A stretch of 64,000 nucleotides of DNA from Gemmatimonadota bacterium (GCA_039586795.1 JBDHJS010000011.1:32001-96000); one strand, 5' to 3'; positions 33,001 through 49,696 are shown, numbered from the stretch's first letter. Program-made: the numbers.

Positions 33001-36000
33001 TTGCGCAGATGCCGGTTGTAGATATCCACCGTGAAGATCGTCGCCGACGAATTGAGCATCGAGTCGAGGCTCGACATGATGGCCGCCAGGAGTGCCGCGA
33101 ACATCAATCCTGTGAGGCCGGCCGGCAGCAACCGCTCGATCAACAGCGGATAGGCCACGTCGGAGGTCTGCGCCAACTCGTCCCGGTACAAGATCCAGGC
33201 GATGATACCGGGGATCACGACGATGAACGGGATGAAGAGCTTGATATAGGCAGCGAACACCGTTCCGTAGAGGCCGTGCTTCACATCGCGCGCCGCCAGC
33301 GTACGCTGCGTTATGAACTGGTTGGCGCCCCAGTAGAATAGGTTGGCGATCCACAACCCGCCGAAGAAGATCGCGAACCAGGGCAACTCCGGATGACTGA
33401 GCGGTAGGACCGTGTGGAACTTGTCCCCCGCCTCCGCCATCACCACATCCCAACCACCTACCGCCTTGAGACCGATCACCGTGACGATGGCGCCGCCGGC
33501 CAACAGCATCAGCCCCTGGATCACATCGGACCAGACCACGGCCTTGAGCCCACCGTATGCAGTATAGGCGCCGGCGAAAACGGCCAGTATCACGATGCCC
33601 CAGCCCAACGGCAAATCGAAGATCGTCTGCAGCGCCAACCCACCCGAGTAGAGCACCGTCGCCATGGCAACGAACACGTAGGCCAGAATCATGTATGCGG
33701 CGAGGAAGCTGCGGGATCTAACGTCAAACCGCCTTTCCAAGTACTCCGGCATCGTCGTGATGCCCAGCTTGAGAAACTTGGGCAGGAACCAGCGGGCCAC
33801 GATTACCAACGTGATCGCCGCCATCCACTCGTACGACGCGATCGCCAACCCGAAATCGACACCCGAGCCCGCCATCCCCACGAAGTGCTCCGTCGAGATG
33901 TTGCTAGCGATCAGGCTGATCCCGATGACCCACCACGGCAGGTTGCGGCCGGCCAGGAAGTAGTCGGCGGCCACCTTCTCCCGGCGACCGGCGATCACGG
34001 CTACGGCGGCGACGACCAGGAAGTAGGCTACGAATGCGACGGTGTCGAGCGTCGTGAAGCCCAAGGTCAGGCCTCCCTACTGAAGTACGAGTCTGTCTAA
34101 CTAGAGATCGGTCGGGACGCTGGTGCGGAGCCGATTCTAACCGTCCGCCATCACCGCATCAAGCATCGAATCACCAGCGTGATACGCTTGAAGATGGAGA
34201 AACCGAAAACTGTGGGACTGTCACATGGCAACTGAGGCATACAGGATTGGTGCTGGGATCCTTCAGCAGGTGGCCATCGGCCGAGCCGTGCAGTTGGTGG
34301 CATTCGGTGCAAGCCAGCGCCGAGTGGTTTTCCGGCGACGGCATCTCGGCTGCGTGGCATACCGTGCAGACGATGAGCTGCTCCACGGGATCCGGTATGA
34401 TATTCGGTCCGGGTGCGTGCGGTTCGTGACAGTCGACGCAACCGATCCCGTCAGCAAGGTTCGGCGCCGCGGTCAGCGGCGTGAACGTACCACCCAGCGA
34501 CTCCGGCGACGTCGTCAGGATACTCGGTGCGGCTCCGCTGTTGTAGTCGCCGAGGGGGTGGTCGTTGTCCAGGCTCGGCCCCAGGTAGCCCCCCACCGGA
34601 TTGGCGGTCGCAATGAACTCGGGCTGCTGATCGCGTAACGCCGTCGTCCAGTGACAGCGCAGACAGCTCTCGGAGCGGGCACCGAGGCCTGGCGTCTGGA
34701 TGACGGAGCTCGCGTTGGGATCGATCTTCAGCAGGTACGGCGCCTGGGTCGAGGGGTGGGCGGTGTGACAGAGCGAGCAGTTCCCGATCTCCGGGTCGAT
34801 CTCCGTGGGAACCTCCACGTGCTGACCGTTGAGCGGTCCTGCCACCGCAAAGAGGAGAGTAGCGGCAAAAGCGCCGGGACGCGTCATCGTCAGAAGACCC
34901 TCGAGAATCGGAAGTAGAGTCTGTTCTGCCCGCTACTCGAGGAGTTGCTCCACATCAGGTGATCGTAGCGGCCTTCCAGCCTCATCAAACCGATTCTGAA
35001 CTCGGCGCCCAGGCCACCGCCGATGAACCTGCCGTGTATCGGCTTCAACCCGCGGCCCAGCTGCTGCGACCAATCGTAGGCGCTCAGCTGACCCGTGACC
35101 CGGAGACCCGGCATCGCGAACCACTCGAGCGCTGCTCGGCCCTGAAAGATGTCGTATCGCGTTTCGTTGCGGCGGGTGCTCCAATTGGCTCGCAGGCTCC
35201 CGTTGACCCTGGGGCCGAAGCGATAGCCGAAACCGCCAAACACCGAGAATATGTCCGTCGTGATCGGATCGAATCGATTCCGAACCCATTCCGCACCGGC
35301 GTCGAGTTGGCCGAACTGCGTCGGCGTCTGGAACTGGAGCCCCGTAGTCATGATCTGCGTCTCGAAGAAGACGATGACCGGATCGCTCTCCGTGGGCAGA
35401 TTCAGCGTGTTTCGATGATAGGCGCGGAAACTCCTGAACGTCAGGTCCAGCGAATACAGTACCTGGAAGAACTCGGCGCTGGCGCTAGGCAACAGATTGT
35501 AACGGTAGTCAACCAGTACGACGTCGCCCGCCTGAATCCGTCCGCCCGGCAACGCCACGAATTCCAAGTAGGGGCCGCTGGGAACTAGGCGATAGTCCAG
35601 CCCGTCTTCGTAGAGGATTGTCCCATCCTCGTTCGTCGCCCGAACACTGGTCGGATCCGGCTGGAATTGATCGAGCAGGAACCGCCGCGATTCGGTGATT
35701 TCATGTGGCTCACCCAGAGCCGTGCCGACACCGCCGCTCCCGACCTGCTGCGATCGCCAACGATAGCCGGCGGCACCACTCGCTTGGAGCAACGTCCCAA
35801 AGGGCAGCTGCGCATTACCACCAGCGTTGATATCGACCAGATAGTTCCGCATGCTGCCGCGATTGAAGTTTCGCCAGTCCCCGCGTCCGCTCACACCGAA
35901 GCTCAGCGTGCGTGATGCCTGGACCCGCTCACTGATCGCCGCGGTGTAGATGCGGTTGCGATCGAATGGTGTCTTCGAGTCGGCGACGCTCCACTGAAGG

Positions 36001-48000: not shown

Positions 48001-49696
48001 ACAACGTCAATCTCCAGCTTGGCCCACTCGCCTTCTTCAACCATATGAACCTGGTGGATCCAGCTCAGCAGAGTTCACCCAGGGCTCCAGGTTCGCCAGG
48101 CTATTACCAGAATTTGCAGGCGGGAGTTGCCTATCAAAGTCGTACTCCTTTCGGATCGGTAGACGTCAGGGCCGAGTACGATGCGACAACCACCGATGCG
48201 ATCACGTATCAGATGTTCCGCGTACGGGCAACGTTGTCGGCACGACTGCTTAGAGGGATGGGCAGCACCGTCGGCGTGGCATGGCAGAACGGCCTTGCTG
48301 ACCGCGGGCGTCCAATCTCGCGCCTCGATGCAAATGCAGCGGTCAACTGGAGTCCTATCCCCCGCCTCGCACTCGTTGGCGCCCTGACGGCCTACAGGGG
48401 ACACGCCGATTTTCAACGAGATACGTTCCTCGGCTTCGGTCTCGGTGCCGAGTGGAGCCTGCGGCGACTTCGCATGTTCGCCAGGTACGACTATCGGTCA
48501 TGGGACACCCGGACTCAGCAACAGGAAAGCCGTATCCGAACCGGCATAGCACGATTCTTCTGATGGCTCGATCGACTCGACCGCTGAATCTGCTGCTGAC
48601 CCTGGCCCTGCTATCTGCTGTCCAGGTGCCTGCGTTCGCCCAGCACGACGACATCTCCGTCACCACTCCAGAGAGGTCATCAAGTGGCTGCGTGTTGTGT
48701 CACGCGTCGCACGATGCCGGGCCAACCGTCAAGAGCCTACGCATTGATCCCTTGGTCGCATCCGAATACTCAGCCGCCGGCCTCTCTCCCGCATCTCTCA
48801 GTTGCCTGCGATGTCATTCCACGTGGAGCGCCCGGCTGCGACAACCGGAGTACGTCAACTTGGGAGTGGCTCCATCCCCAGGCGGAAAGCTCTTCGGGAC
48901 CTATCTGCAGGACGATCATCCGGTAGGCGAAGCTTCGCGCCCCGGGCTACCCATGAGGGGAGACGACGCGGATCCATGGTCTAGTTCCGTCGGGATTGGA
49001 AGCGTCGTTCCGAGCCCCGGGACCCACGTACCCGAGTGCAACACCTGCCACGACCCCCATTCTCGCAACGGGCTTCTCATCGCACCCGAGGAGGAGCATT
49101 TCTTCTGCGGCGCGTGCCACGACAGGACTCAGGCCTCATCGACCACGCATACAAACGTCCCCTGCACTGGCTGTCACGCCCTCCACAACGCATCCTCGAC
49201 CAAACTTCTGGCGGAACATGATGTCGACCGGCTCTGCCTCTCCTGTCACACTGCCGCTGGCGTTCCCTCCCTGTCACGCAACTACTCCGAACGCCGAGCC
49301 GAGCTACTAAGCATGCTGGCAGTTCCACGAACGAACATGCATGGCGAGTCGCGTTCCGATCGCTGCACGGGCTGCCACCTGCCTCACTGAACACCAGCAC
49401 TCTGCACCAAAAACGCCGCGGCAACTGCGCTCACGCGGGAGCGGTCGACGGCCGAGCTTCGTAAGTGCTACACTATTTGACTTTGGCTGATCGTGCCGCG
49501 ATGTTGCAGCTGTAGAGAAGACCGAAGCCCCGGTCGTTAAAGGGTCCTTTTGGAAGACGTTTCATTGGTCCCTCCTCAACGGCGGCCGGGGCCTATTCTT
49601 TTGAAGTACGACCTCCCTCCCTCATCTGAGACCACCGCACTCGTTGGTGGTAGGTGGCCCTCAGGCTGACACGCATAGCAGCATACCCGGTAGTGA

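Follow-up and report, generated by a model that had tools for sequence, protein, structure and literature searches.

Twelve intact genes at positions 34171-49390 of a 64-kb window from a Gemmatimonadota bacterium (the window being the whole stretch of DNA) probably constitute the Gemmatimonadota version of an OmcE/Uet-type extracellular electron-transfer gene cluster, for which we infer a nanowire mechanism from the homologues. The initial annotation had interpreted the locus as a new, independently evolved porin-cytochrome conduit for extracellular electron transfer, and as a whole it was partly supported. The setting stood, as this is a multihaem locus with relatives linked to such transfer in print. 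However, the 4-haem genes were found to be OmcE homologues, and the barrel profile matched the barrels of Geobacteraceae-type clusters of omcE composition. Since this OmcE homology goes together with the published omcE and Uet composition, the locus was assigned to a known system and its interpretation as a new conduit was corrected.

The same five-gene set occurs twice, in module A (minus strand) and module B (plus strand), which are diverged and arranged back to back, with the genes M1 and M2 in between. All genes were intact and located where they had been annotated, and a recount of the CXXCH motifs gave the same numbers (A1, 6; A3, 6; A5, 4; M1, 14; B5, 4; B3, 6; B1, 7). In global alignments, the identities between A and B were 27% for the barrels, 35% for A1/B1, 50% for A3/B3, 43% for A4/B4, and 39% for A5/B5, in keeping with the 27, 32, 49, 46, and 34% claimed initially. 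The arrangement of two five-gene sets with a 14-haem gene between them was confirmed, but a third propeller gene, M2, beside the 14-haem gene was missing from the initial list. The complete unit thus counts seven genes, namely tetrahaem, propeller, c7 hexahaem, barrel, 6-7-haem, second propeller, and 14-haem; the first five are doubled here, and the propeller/14-haem pair is single and flanked by both mirror copies. Apart from this genome, the phylum sample contained 14 Gemmatimonadota genomes with the seven-gene unit, which was also found in 9 of 24 relatives from the family; the mirror duplication was present in 2 genomes among those sampled. The mirror duplication, the c7-type hexahaem, and the OmcE-derived 6-7-haem cytochrome after each barrel are genuinely local traits.

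The locus is island-like, lying between an unrelated sodium:solute symporter gene and an unrelated GH2 beta-galactosidase gene. No inner-membrane quinol oxidase gene was found within the locus. Just downstream of M1, an inverted repeat at 40234-40275 on the minus strand (19-nt arms, 84% complementary) probably separates, as a terminator, the M2-M1 unit from the A5-A1 unit. A terminator-like site at 40250-40236 lies within this repeat, 3' of M1; the evidence for a terminator is weak because the scan gave no more sites than it did in shuffled sequences.

The tetrahaem cytochromes were compared with the sequences in the PDB. The canonical-type copy B5 (43863-44537, plus strand; 224 aa, 4 CXXCH) matched 9YUQ (E 4.7e-30) and 7TFS (E 5.2e-26) over its full length (residues 11-224). 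The more diverged copy A5 (38878-39603, minus strand; 241 aa, 4 CXXCH), in which 13 residues are inserted behind the HDFS motif, also matched both in full length (E 1.4e-18 and 1.4e-13, respectively), and no other PDB sequence matched A5 or B5 at E<0.4. We take 7TFS to be the OmcE of G. sulfurreducens; 9YUQ, according to PMC13712944, is the OmcE bundle of D. soudanensis. The match of B5 to the solved structures was no weaker than that of the OmcE-like genes in Geobacteraceae-type clusters, and B5 had 2,367 relatives at E<=1e-5. As for the haem ligands, H39, H57, H60, H111, H148, H194, H197, and H222 (B5 numbering) were invariant in 18/18 aligned sequences including A5 and B5. This set consists of the histidines of the four CXXCH motifs and four further histidines, so that all eight haem-ligand histidines were kept in A5 and B5; the same combination is given in PMC13712944 as the conserved OmcE signature with bis-His ligation including an inter-subunit ligand. 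By the PDB matches and this signature, A5 and B5 were shown, at the level of sequence, to be OmcE homologues. A5 is a candidate filament subunit of module A and may form filaments as its solved homologues do; PMC13712944 cautions that OmcE-like tetrahaems occur widely and that not every one of them necessarily polymerises. Moreover, two contigs from a sediment RNA library matched 38859-39890 without a mismatch, covering A5 and the 287 nt upstream of it, which hints at A5 expression; such contigs may stem from carried-over DNA and show neither strand nor level.

The two barrel genes encode A2 (34890-36818, minus strand; 642 aa; g02919) and B2 (46638-48563, plus strand; 641 aa from a GTG at 46638, in an open frame that begins at 46587; g02928). 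When the AlphaFold2 modelling of A2 was repeated, it reproduced the initial model, with a pLDDT of 87.3, a pTM of 0.71, a signal helix at residues 2-21, 30 DSSP strands of at least 10 residues, and a C-terminus ...RFSRVF. A small, conserved inserted domain was located at about residues 374-432. B2 was assigned by homology to A2 (27% identical, E 4.8e-64); it matched the barrel-family profile, to which it had itself contributed, at 1.2e-207, and formed a long branch within the Gemmatimonadota-type clade of the tree. The model supports A2 and B2 as very large outer-membrane beta-barrels, which upholds their initial designation as giant barrels. A Foldseek search against the PDB returned 221 matches at E<=0.001 (225 initially), with TMq values of 0.35 for MtrB and 0.38 for LptD (0.38 and 0.37 initially). 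The match to 6r2q_B (TMq 0.35, rmsd 16.7 A) was no better than those to TonB-dependent receptors, and in a structure comparison TonB-dependent receptors, LptD, and ushers all reached a Z of about 12-15. The structure matches show only a large outer-membrane barrel.

Neither A2 nor B2 had a Pfam or NCBIfam family, as had been reported initially; the only row was a sub-threshold phage tail tube (E 0.0074), and for membership in MtrB_PioB, no Pfam family was obtained at E<=0.01 for either barrel. The lack of a family, the only nine relatives returned by a word-indexed search, and a relation to MtrB that is not detectable beyond 'large barrel' would fit a new, independently evolved porin-cytochrome conduit whose barrel family is nearly without relatives and whose propeller lipoprotein is a novel fixed part. 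The count of nine proteins was reproduced by the word-indexed search, but it reflects the method and not the family size. The barrel-family profile retrieved 1,935 cluster representatives at E<=1e-3, of which 412 remained at E<=1e-30, which contradicts a barrel of no known family. This profile was specific and did not pick up generic barrels, as it gave 2 matches in the own genome and any match in only 15 of 301 genomes of the phylum. Furthermore, the barrel is homologous to the OmcE-cluster barrels of Geobacteraceae-type genomes and of loci labelled with 15 phyla, the tetrahaems are OmcE homologues, and publications on the omcE and uet clusters describe barrel, propellers, and cytochromes as occurring together. 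The propeller lipoprotein was likewise no new fixed part, two being in print for omcE clusters (PMC13712944) and UetH/UetI for Uet (bioRxiv 10.1101/2022.05.06.490989). A new conduit is thus extremely improbable.

The distribution of the cluster was monitored in 78 loci retrieved with the OmcE profile, of which 55, those extending 4.5 kb or more downstream, were testable. A barrel-family match was found in 57 of the 78 loci and a barrel in 52 of the 55 testable ones; in 47 of these, the genes were ordered OmcE-propeller-(small cytochrome)-barrel. The barrel-bearing loci carry labels of 15 phyla. Only OmcE, propeller, and barrel were common to most clusters across phyla, and many loci labelled as Pseudomonadota, Thermodesulfobacteriota, or Verrucomicrobiota had no cytochrome between propeller and barrel. 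A large cytochrome matching the OmcE profile was present in 44 loci, usually beside the second propeller; 42 of 45 large cytochromes sampled had 11 haems. As to the Geobacteraceae-type loci, all eight fetched contained OmcE (4 haem), propeller, barrel, propeller, 10/11-haem, and 13-haem genes, in varying order and with one 10/11-haem gene split. The barrel profile matched 8/8 of their barrels (E 3e-63 to 1e-20) and that of a Geobacter-labelled MAG (5e-58), in the family of which 19 of 81 genomes had the barrel; the eight loci came from this family. According to PMC13712944, the omcE cluster comprises OmcE, two beta-propeller lipoproteins, a barrel, and two multihaem cytochromes, and the Geobacteraceae-type gene set is exactly this composition. 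The barrel is read there, as a conjecture, as a 'secretion pore or anchor', whereas in the initial annotation it would sheathe the flanking cytochromes.

The NHL and DUF5128 matches of all three propellers were above the cut-off. A4 (37672-38850, minus strand; NHL 2.2e-13, DUF5128 1.1e-09) and B4 (44655-45773, plus strand; NHL 3.7e-14, DUF5128 1.7e-11) were 43% identical and represent one type, and M2 (42216-43163, minus strand; 315 aa; NHL 8.3e-17, DUF5128 2.1e-07), 30% identical to A4 and B4, represents a second type. Judged by eye, the lipoboxes VTGC of A4 (...AAVTGC) and LTAC of B4 (...LLTAC) make both probable lipoproteins; THGC of M2 is atypical. The counterpart of A4 lay directly 3' of the OmcE-like gene in 47 canonical loci. 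M2-M1 pairs were conserved in relatives, and M2 and M1 are the conserved second propeller-cytochrome pair of the cluster.

M1 (40300-42219, minus strand; 14 CXXCH) aligned by hhalign with a set of 45 large cytochromes, including 42 with 11 haems, taken from related loci (99.4%, E 9.7e-22). Of the 14 genomes from the phylum, 7 had 13-15-haem homologues next to a second propeller, as did at least 4 relatives from the family. Judging from this alignment, M1 is the diverged counterpart of the conserved 11-haem cytochrome of the cluster. A3 (36815-37675, minus strand; TIGR04257 nanowire_3heme 6.6e-38; PDB 3ov0 8e-41) and B3 (45763-46641, plus strand; TIGR04257 1.7e-34) are hexahaem cytochromes with two c7-type trihaem domains, both proteins being matched by TIGR04257 in two stretches, and the A3-type gene adjoined the barrel gene in 14/14 barrel-bearing genomes of the phylum sample. 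A1 (34171-34887, minus strand; 6 CXXCH) has two extra C-terminal haem sites, and B1 (48452-49390, plus strand; 7 CXXCH; probable start at Met 48563) combines an OmcE-like four-haem domain with a trihaem C-terminal tail. Both matched the OmcE profile by hhalign (A1, 96.4%, E 1.2e-09; B1, 98.5%, E 3.2e-15, profile positions 12-216 of 217) and, on this basis, relate to OmcE as derivatives of its fold. In the alignment of their family (19 rows), 7 CXXCH were present in 18, A1 having 6, and Q-H stood at the predicted signal cleavage site in 17.

A1 also had a local match to PDB chain 6r2q_A, presumably the MtrA chain of the Mtr complex, at residues 148-222 (E 2.7e-05). In the MtrA/DmsE decahaem family TIGR03508, A1 scored 50.2 bits against a cut-off of 192.2, and the other cytochromes of the locus scored lower. 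The local match, and the fact that each barrel gene is flanked on both sides by an adjoining cytochrome gene, would be in line with the same homologous system forming no filament and acting instead, like MtrAB or the Uet model, as a short porin-cytochrome conduit across the outer membrane. A1/B1 or M1 would then be inside the barrel, the tetrahaem would be a surface or shuttle cytochrome, and electrons may be taken up from minerals, cathodes, or partner cells; just such an arrangement, with a cytochrome inserted in the predicted 28-strand barrel UetC, is put forward in the Uet preprint (bioRxiv 10.1101/2022.05.06.490989). The genome contains two haem-copper oxidase subunits and DsrA, so that oxygen-linked electron uptake is conceivable. 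However, two close structural homologues of the tetrahaem were solved as filaments, and the ligand histidines, including those needed for inter-subunit ligation, were all invariant. Moreover, most clusters share only OmcE, propeller, and barrel, the cytochrome between the latter two is often missing, and the MtrA match of A1 is short and weak. We therefore consider a conduit of this kind unlikely, and prefer the nanowire-type mechanism.

A role of the cytochromes in periplasmic sulfur or nitrogen redox chemistry, with the barrel as an unrelated substrate porin, would agree with a dsrA gene and its dsrB-like neighbour in the genome and with weak, sub-threshold profile matches to NrfB/NrfH, octahaem nitrite reductase, and HmcA. 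None of these matches came near its curated cut-off, the locus genes contained neither a catalytic domain nor a catalytic haem motif (CXXCK, CX3-4CH), and the close linkage of the barrel to OmcE-like genes holds across phyla of differing metabolism. There is hardly any probability left for such a role.

Compared with the omcE cluster of Desulfuromonadia, the locus has a full-length tetrahaem homologue with the same 4 CXXCH and 4 His, a large barrel of the same sequence family (E 3e-63 to 2e-55 in the Geobacteraceae-type genomes compared), two kinds of propeller lipoprotein (A4/B4 and M2), and two further multihaem cytochromes (A1/B1 with 6-7 haems and M1 with 14). It differs in the extra c7-type hexahaem A3/B3, with the propeller and the barrel on its two sides, in the OmcE-derived 6-7-haem cytochrome directly after the barrel, and in a large cytochrome with 14 instead of 11 haems and without an N-terminal OmcE-like domain. 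In addition, the glycosylation gene block is absent, the five-gene core is doubled as mirror copies, the N-terminal extension of roughly 250 aa that several Geobacteraceae barrels have is missing from the barrel, and the host phylum is outside the five named in PMC13712944.

The Uet (undecahaem electron transfer) cluster uetABCDEFGHIJ is known from Ca. Tenderia electrophaga/Tenderiales and some Gallionella (bioRxiv 10.1101/2022.05.06.490989; PMC10734462). It encodes tetrahaem UetA, prolyl isomerase UetB, the predicted 28-strand barrel UetC, c7 trihaem UetD/E/G, cupredoxin UetF, NHL propellers UetH and UetI, and the large linear multihaem UetJ; the model has a UetC pore of about 5 nm and an MtrAB-like inserted cytochrome (bioRxiv 10.1101/2022.05.06.490989). 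Compared by composition from the preprint text alone, all five part types are present here. In contrast, the c7 domains are fused in pairs here, the large cytochrome has 14 haems and not 11, and counterparts of UetB and UetF are absent, a domain search having found no prolyl isomerase or cupredoxin domain among the 12 locus genes. The role proposed for Uet is that of taking up electrons in an aerobic autotroph. A PPIase gene was observed at 16991-17890, 17 kb off, in an unrelated block. Database searches with a gammaproteobacterial barrel as the query yielded no named proteins.

MtrCAB of Shewanella (PDB 6R2Q) and Pcc of Geobacter (OmbB-OmaB-OmcB, PMC4282303) likewise combine a large barrel with periplasmic and surface multihaem cytochromes, and a whole-module tandem duplication is also found in Geobacter (ombB-omaB-omcB/ombC-omaC-omcC, PMC4282303). 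Unlike in MtrCAB, the barrel here has no sequence relation to MtrB (no Pfam match; TMq 0.35 only) and is larger, with 30 long strands modelled (28 predicted for UetC) versus 26 cited for MtrB (bioRxiv 10.1101/2022.05.06.490989); the decahaem MtrA/MtrC are absent, and the core subunit is from a filament-forming family. The osc (OmcS companion) cluster of G. sulfurreducens, as cited in PMC13194489 and PMC13712944, encodes companions proposed for folding, for secretion (OscE, F, G), and for a porin-like mounting route. The likeness is one of principle, with companion genes accompanying that of a filament-forming cytochrome; the osc subunit is of another cytochrome family, hexahaem OmcS. Multihaem cytochromes are also paired with NHL beta-propeller proteins in the D. 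ferrophilus IS5 clusters DFE_0448-0451 and DFE_0461-0465 (PMC5815863, PMC9769857), and homologues of these, noted by FeGenie, are reported as 'widely annotated' in marine Gemmatimonadota MAGs (PMC11316326). The syntenic EET1-EET4 clusters of peat Acidobacteriota and Verrucomicrobiota, which include 'OmcE-like' cytochromes, are porin-multihaem clusters in uncultured non-model, though other, phyla (bioRxiv 10.64898/2026.05.27.727921).

In the preferred nanowire-type mechanism, Sec would export the cytochromes, and haem attachment would take place in the periplasm. The tetrahaem would cross, or be mounted at, the outer membrane via the barrel, and would polymerise head to tail into an insulated haem wire joined by histidine-haem ligation between subunits. 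The c7 hexahaem may be the electron carrier across the periplasm, the larger cytochromes, at or in the barrel, may form the link between periplasm and wire, and the propeller lipoproteins may aid assembly or stabilise the complex. Electrons would flow either outward, to minerals or partner cells, or inward by uptake. No report of filaments, localisation, or electron transfer was found for this organism or any other Gemmatimonadota. The same parts list has been in print since 2022 as the Uet cluster. What is new here would be the host and the layout; the electron-transfer system itself is a known one, and not a new kind of conduit.

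Twelve intact genes were found within 34171-49390 of the window, flanked by unrelated genes, on the left for a sodium:solute symporter and on the right for a GH2 beta-galactosidase. All products of the locus carry signal peptides. Between two mirrored modules lies a single pair on the minus strand, in which M2 (42216-43163), an NHL/DUF5128 propeller of 315 aa, overlaps by 4 bases the start of M1, a cytochrome gene with 14 CXXCH motifs. After a gap of 696 bp, which contains a hairpin (40234-40275), module A follows on the minus strand in the order A5 (tetrahaem, 4 CXXCH), A4 (NHL propeller), A3 (c7 hexahaem, 6), A2 (642-aa barrel), and A1 (6). 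Module B lies on the plus strand, divergent from M2, and consists of B5 (tetrahaem, 4 CXXCH), B4 (propeller), B3 (c7 hexahaem, 6), B2 (641-aa barrel), and B1 (7). The identities between the modules were 27% for the barrels, 35% for A1/B1, 50% for A3/B3, 43% for A4/B4, and 39% for A5/B5, and no further barrel or tetrahaem copies were found in the source genome beyond the two modules. The initial annotation was reproduced in its counts and coordinates, its family searches, its predicted structure, and its Foldseek result; its description of the locus lacked the propeller gene M2. No Rfam family match was obtained in 33000-50500, and the sites returned by a promoter/terminator scan were no commoner than in shuffled sequence.

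When B5 was compared with all PDB sequences, significant matches were obtained to two entries only, 9yuq (4.7e-30) and 7tfs (5.2e-26), over the whole length, and A5 matched the same two entries (1.4e-18 and 1.4e-13, respectively). We take 7TFS, titled just 'Cytochrome c' in the PDB table, to be the OmcE filament of G. sulfurreducens. 9YUQ is the OmcE bundle of Desulfuromonas soudanensis (PMC13712944). The four CXXCH motifs, together with four other His, the conserved signature named in that paper, were invariant in an alignment of 18 family members including A5 and B5. Moreover, B5 was at least as close to the solved OmcE structures as the OmcE-like genes of Geobacteraceae-type clusters are. 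Judged by these alignments, A5 and B5 are OmcE homologues. The tetrahaem family comprised 2,367 clusters at E<=1e-5, whose few named members belong to Gammaproteobacteria, Verrucomicrobia, Acidobacteria, Chlorobi, Bacteroidota, and others.

In one sediment RNA library (X20), contigs of 341 and 718 nt matched 38859-39890 with 0 mismatches, covering all of A5 and 287 nt upstream, with neither strand nor level given by the contigs. They are a hint of A5 expression, and carried-over DNA is also a possible source. Outside A5, the same library showed only ~30-nt pieces at B5, from other records, and gaps in its coverage of the locus are uninformative. Within the covered region, 43-76 nt upstream of the A5 start, lies a perfect 13-nt direct repeat, TCCGGTTGGGGCT (39646-39679; two copies, 21 nt start to start), which has no Rfam match and may serve as a regulator site or as part of a leader, i.e. 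a leader element.

The barrel had been placed in no known family in the initial annotation, and a word-indexed search did yield only 9 relatives. When a profile of those 9 was searched against 1.84 billion cluster representatives, however, 1,935 matched at E<=1e-3, 1,455 at E<=1e-10, and 412 at E<=1e-30, mostly of ~640 aa. The profile matched two genes in the source genome and 15 of the 301 genomes sampled from the phylum; therefore, BamA, LptD, and TonB-dependent receptors are not picked up by it. A search started from a Thioalkalispiraceae-labelled barrel gave 31 matches. When metagenome contigs were scanned with A2, 2 loci showed matches of 32 residues; since the cluster profiles found no cluster gene in either, these were dismissed as chance. 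Several Geobacteraceae-type barrels (L053, L127-L129) are open frames of ~890-930 aa in which the barrel profile starts near residue 296; these copies thus carry an N-terminal extension of ~250 aa that is absent from the window barrels. In spite of ~1,900 matching representatives, the cluster barrel has no Pfam or NCBIfam model, and a family model would allow annotators to recognise such clusters.

In the AlphaFold2 model of the barrel (pLDDT 87.3), DSSP assigned 30 strands with a length of 10 residues or more, of which all or only a part may lie in the barrel wall. Structure searches (Foldseek pdb, VIA wide) returned generic large barrels only, with similar scores for TonB-dependent receptors, FhaC, PelB, LptD, and ushers; LptD was aligned with Z 12.4-12.7 and an rmsd of ~6 A over ~410 residues, and MtrB with a TMq of 0.35. 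An usher-type or LptD-type identity was rejected, because Z values of 12-12.7 are no better than those of unrelated barrels and a sequence signal is absent. The model also displayed a small conserved inserted domain at A2 residues ~374-432 (window ~35523-35699), and at the equivalent place in B2, with a lower pLDDT of 74-84. By strand parity, this domain would face the periplasm or the lumen, where it may act in docking or as a plug. It holds the most conserved motifs of the barrel family (...DYxL...LPGGRIxxGDxVLVDYRY).

Barrel and OmcE occur together. We fetched 78 loci from species-representative genomes by OmcE alignment and scanned their six-frame ORFs with profiles of the window proteins. 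A barrel-family match was found in 57 of the 78. Where at least 4.5 kb lay downstream of the OmcE-like gene, the barrel was present in 52 of 55 loci and absent from three (L032, L058, and L072), and 47 of these 55 shared the order OmcE, propeller, an interval of 0-2 kb that often holds a small cytochrome, and barrel. A large cytochrome matching the OmcE profile was present in 44 loci, usually beside a second propeller, and 42 of the 45 large cytochromes sampled had 11 CXXCH. By submitters' labels, the barrel-bearing loci span 15 phyla. In the family of a Geobacter-labelled MAG, the barrel was found in 19 of 81 genomes, and all eight loci fetched from this family encoded a 4-haem OmcE-like protein, two propellers, a barrel (E 3e-63 to 1e-20), and two larger cytochromes, one of 10/11 haems (split in one locus) and one of 13 haems. 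The locus L068, from a Rhodospirillales-labelled MAG, has two barrel genes and is another case of two modules at one locus; one of its barrels, which has a c7 hexahaem alongside, belongs to the Gemmatimonadota type (E 7e-163), and this suggests either lateral transfer or an error in binning.

The remaining cytochromes were also related to this cluster type. M1 matched the 11-haem family (hhalign 99.4%, E 9.7e-22, ~175 columns; hmmsearch 1.7e-15) and is missing its N-terminal OmcE-like domain. M2-M1 is thus the second propeller-cytochrome pair of the cluster and no mere spacer separating the modules. Furthermore, pairs of M2 and a 13-15-haem cytochrome recur in Gemmatimonadota relatives. B5 aligned to positions 6-209 of the 11-haem cytochrome profile (E 1.4e-46). 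The conserved 11-haem cytochromes (~570 aa; e.g. L053:16398-18149 and L132:11902-13680) begin with a full OmcE-like four-haem domain. B1 matched the OmcE profile over nearly its full length (98.5%, E 3.2e-15) and continues with three more haem sites; the match of A1 was less complete (96.4%). A3 and B3 consist of two c7-type trihaem domains each (TIGR04257 twice each; 3ov0 8e-41), and no TIGR04257 match above the cut-off was found among 14 control genomes.

These components can be placed beside published systems. The barrel of the omcE cluster has been described, putatively, as a pore for secretion or as an anchor, and such clusters were reported in Thermodesulfobacteriota, Pseudomonadota, Aquificota, Campylobacterota, and Nitrospirota (PMC13712944); the window locus differs in its host, as Gemmatimonadota is not among the phyla that this paper names. 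In the uetA-J cluster of a Tenderiales preprint (10.1101/2022.05.06.490989), a tetrahaem is encoded together with a prolyl isomerase, a barrel of 28 strands whose pore measures ~5 nm, three trihaem cytochromes of the c7 type, a cupredoxin, two propellers of the NHL type, and an undecahaem cytochrome; an MtrAB-like insertion, or possibly polymers, was proposed there. The Uet cluster is also present in Gallionella genomes (PMC10734462), D. ferrophilus DFE clusters pair cytochromes with NHL propellers (PMC5815863, PMC9769857), and in a peat preprint Acidobacteriota and Verrucomicrobiota were reported to have porin-multihaem clusters with 'OmcE-like' cytochromes among their members. A survey of marine Gemmatimonadota (PMC11316326) mentions 'DFE_461-465' homologues (by FeGenie) and DsrAB-bearing clades, and the words multiheme, extracellular electron, and porin are absent from it. 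No published description of this cluster in Gemmatimonadota was found in main texts, and supplements could still list one. On profile and alignment evidence, the tetrahaem, barrel, propeller, and large-cytochrome genes are homologous to their counterparts in the OmcE/Uet-type cluster, with the haem ligands conserved. The conduit had been presented as new and independently evolved; the proposed function proved partly right, and the novelty has to be withdrawn, since the cluster belongs to the OmcE/Uet type.

Within the phylum, one barrel each was found in 14 other genomes of the 301 sampled. The barrel of a genome from the same order (G134) is identical in sequence to that of L016, a record labelled Gemmatimonadota, which confirms the phylum. 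In all 14 genomes, a c7 hexahaem adjoined the barrel, and a propeller and an OmcE-like gene with 4-5 haems lay in its surroundings. In 9 of the 14, a B1/A1-family cytochrome with 7 haems was present, usually immediately behind the barrel; the M2 plus 13/14-haem pair was present in 7 and a propeller plus 11-haem pair instead in one, with two of the 14 barrel contigs being too short to judge. Among the same-family relatives, 9 of 24 genomes had the barrel, and in one of these, G311, two modules lie on small contigs (L116; L117 and L118). The mirror duplication is rare, being seen in 2 of the genomes sampled.

The barrels of the family relatives (L115-L125), even within the same genus, were only 27-33% identical to A2/B2, whereas the propellers were 42-53% and the c7 hexahaems 37-51% identical to those of the window. 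By these identities, the barrel evolves faster than any other part of the cluster. Therefore, the 27% identity of A2 and B2, from which an old duplication had been concluded, is in itself no evidence of great age. In a FastTree of 106 barrels, A2 and B2 both fell in the Gemmatimonadota-type clade and were not sisters; A2 grouped with metagenomic sequences at ~50% identity, and B2 stood alone on a long branch. This tree comes from a single method and has long branches, and the order of events is not fixed by it.

Most probably, the tetrahaem polymerises outside the cell, for which the barrel would serve as route or mount. Electron transport through the periplasm would fall to the c7 hexahaem, a role that PpcA-E reportedly play for OmcS (PMC10954620); A1/B1, which derive from OmcE, and the 14-haem M1 would link the periplasm to the wire, and the propellers would help assembly. 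A complex prediction of B2 (27-641), B5 (33-224), and 4 haems gave no answer for or against this, with a score of 0.00 in both of two uncontrolled runs. Outside the window, on contigs C73, C44, and C9, the source genome has a dsrA above the cut-off with a dsrB-like gene adjoining and two haem-copper oxidase subunit I genes, and it therefore encodes both sulfur-based anaerobic metabolism and oxygen respiration; the DsrAB may be of the reductive or the oxidative type, which makes 'sulfate-reducing' a putative label. Electron flow via the locus may run in either direction, as export or uptake. Elsewhere in the window, a glycyl-radical enzyme (PFL-like, 788 aa) adjoins its radical-SAM activase (24392-27669, minus strand), which points to an anaerobic lifestyle. 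In a separate minus-strand block (10804-21604), a tandem pair of DUF3604 proteins (658 and 641 aa) is accompanied by a 742-aa HupE/UreJ-domain protein, a prolyl isomerase of the PPIC type, an outer-membrane channel of the MetA-pathway type, three familyless ORFs, and then a sulfatase.

The B1/A1 family is a more interesting lead than the mirror duplication. Secretion, anchoring, charging, and the start and end of the wires are called unanswered in print, and it was reasoned that the anchor ought to resemble OmcE and have one His to spare; no such gene was seen in the D. soudanensis cluster (PMC13712944). In the window, a candidate gene lies directly behind each barrel. In an alignment of 19 family rows, 18 have seven CXXCH and A1 has six, and 17 carry Q-H at the predicted signal cleavage site, this His being the second residue after cleavage. 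By our own count, ~8 non-motif His are conserved, giving ~15 His in all for 7 haems, which is one beyond the need of seven bis-His haems. A1/B1 could thus be the missing base of the OmcE wire, a proposal that we consider improbable: the OmcE-fold four-haem domain could dock onto the first filament subunit, the near-invariant His could ligate the unsatisfied terminal haem of the filament, and the 2-3-haem tail could extend through the barrel as far as the c7 hexahaem in the periplasm. The AlphaFold2 model of B1 from the 19-row alignment (pLDDT 45.4, pTM 0.25) was too poor for a fold search.

A1/B1 are nevertheless a concrete, testable candidate for the anchor. If the proposal were true, clusters of this type would reveal the way in which cytochrome nanowires are anchored and charged, and the mirror modules would build two distinct wires (A5 and B5 being 39% identical), each with its own base and barrel. 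The window locus extends the OmcE/Uet-type machinery to Gemmatimonadota, and sediment members of this phylum with DsrAB and oxidases may gain a route for electron exchange with minerals or partner cells.
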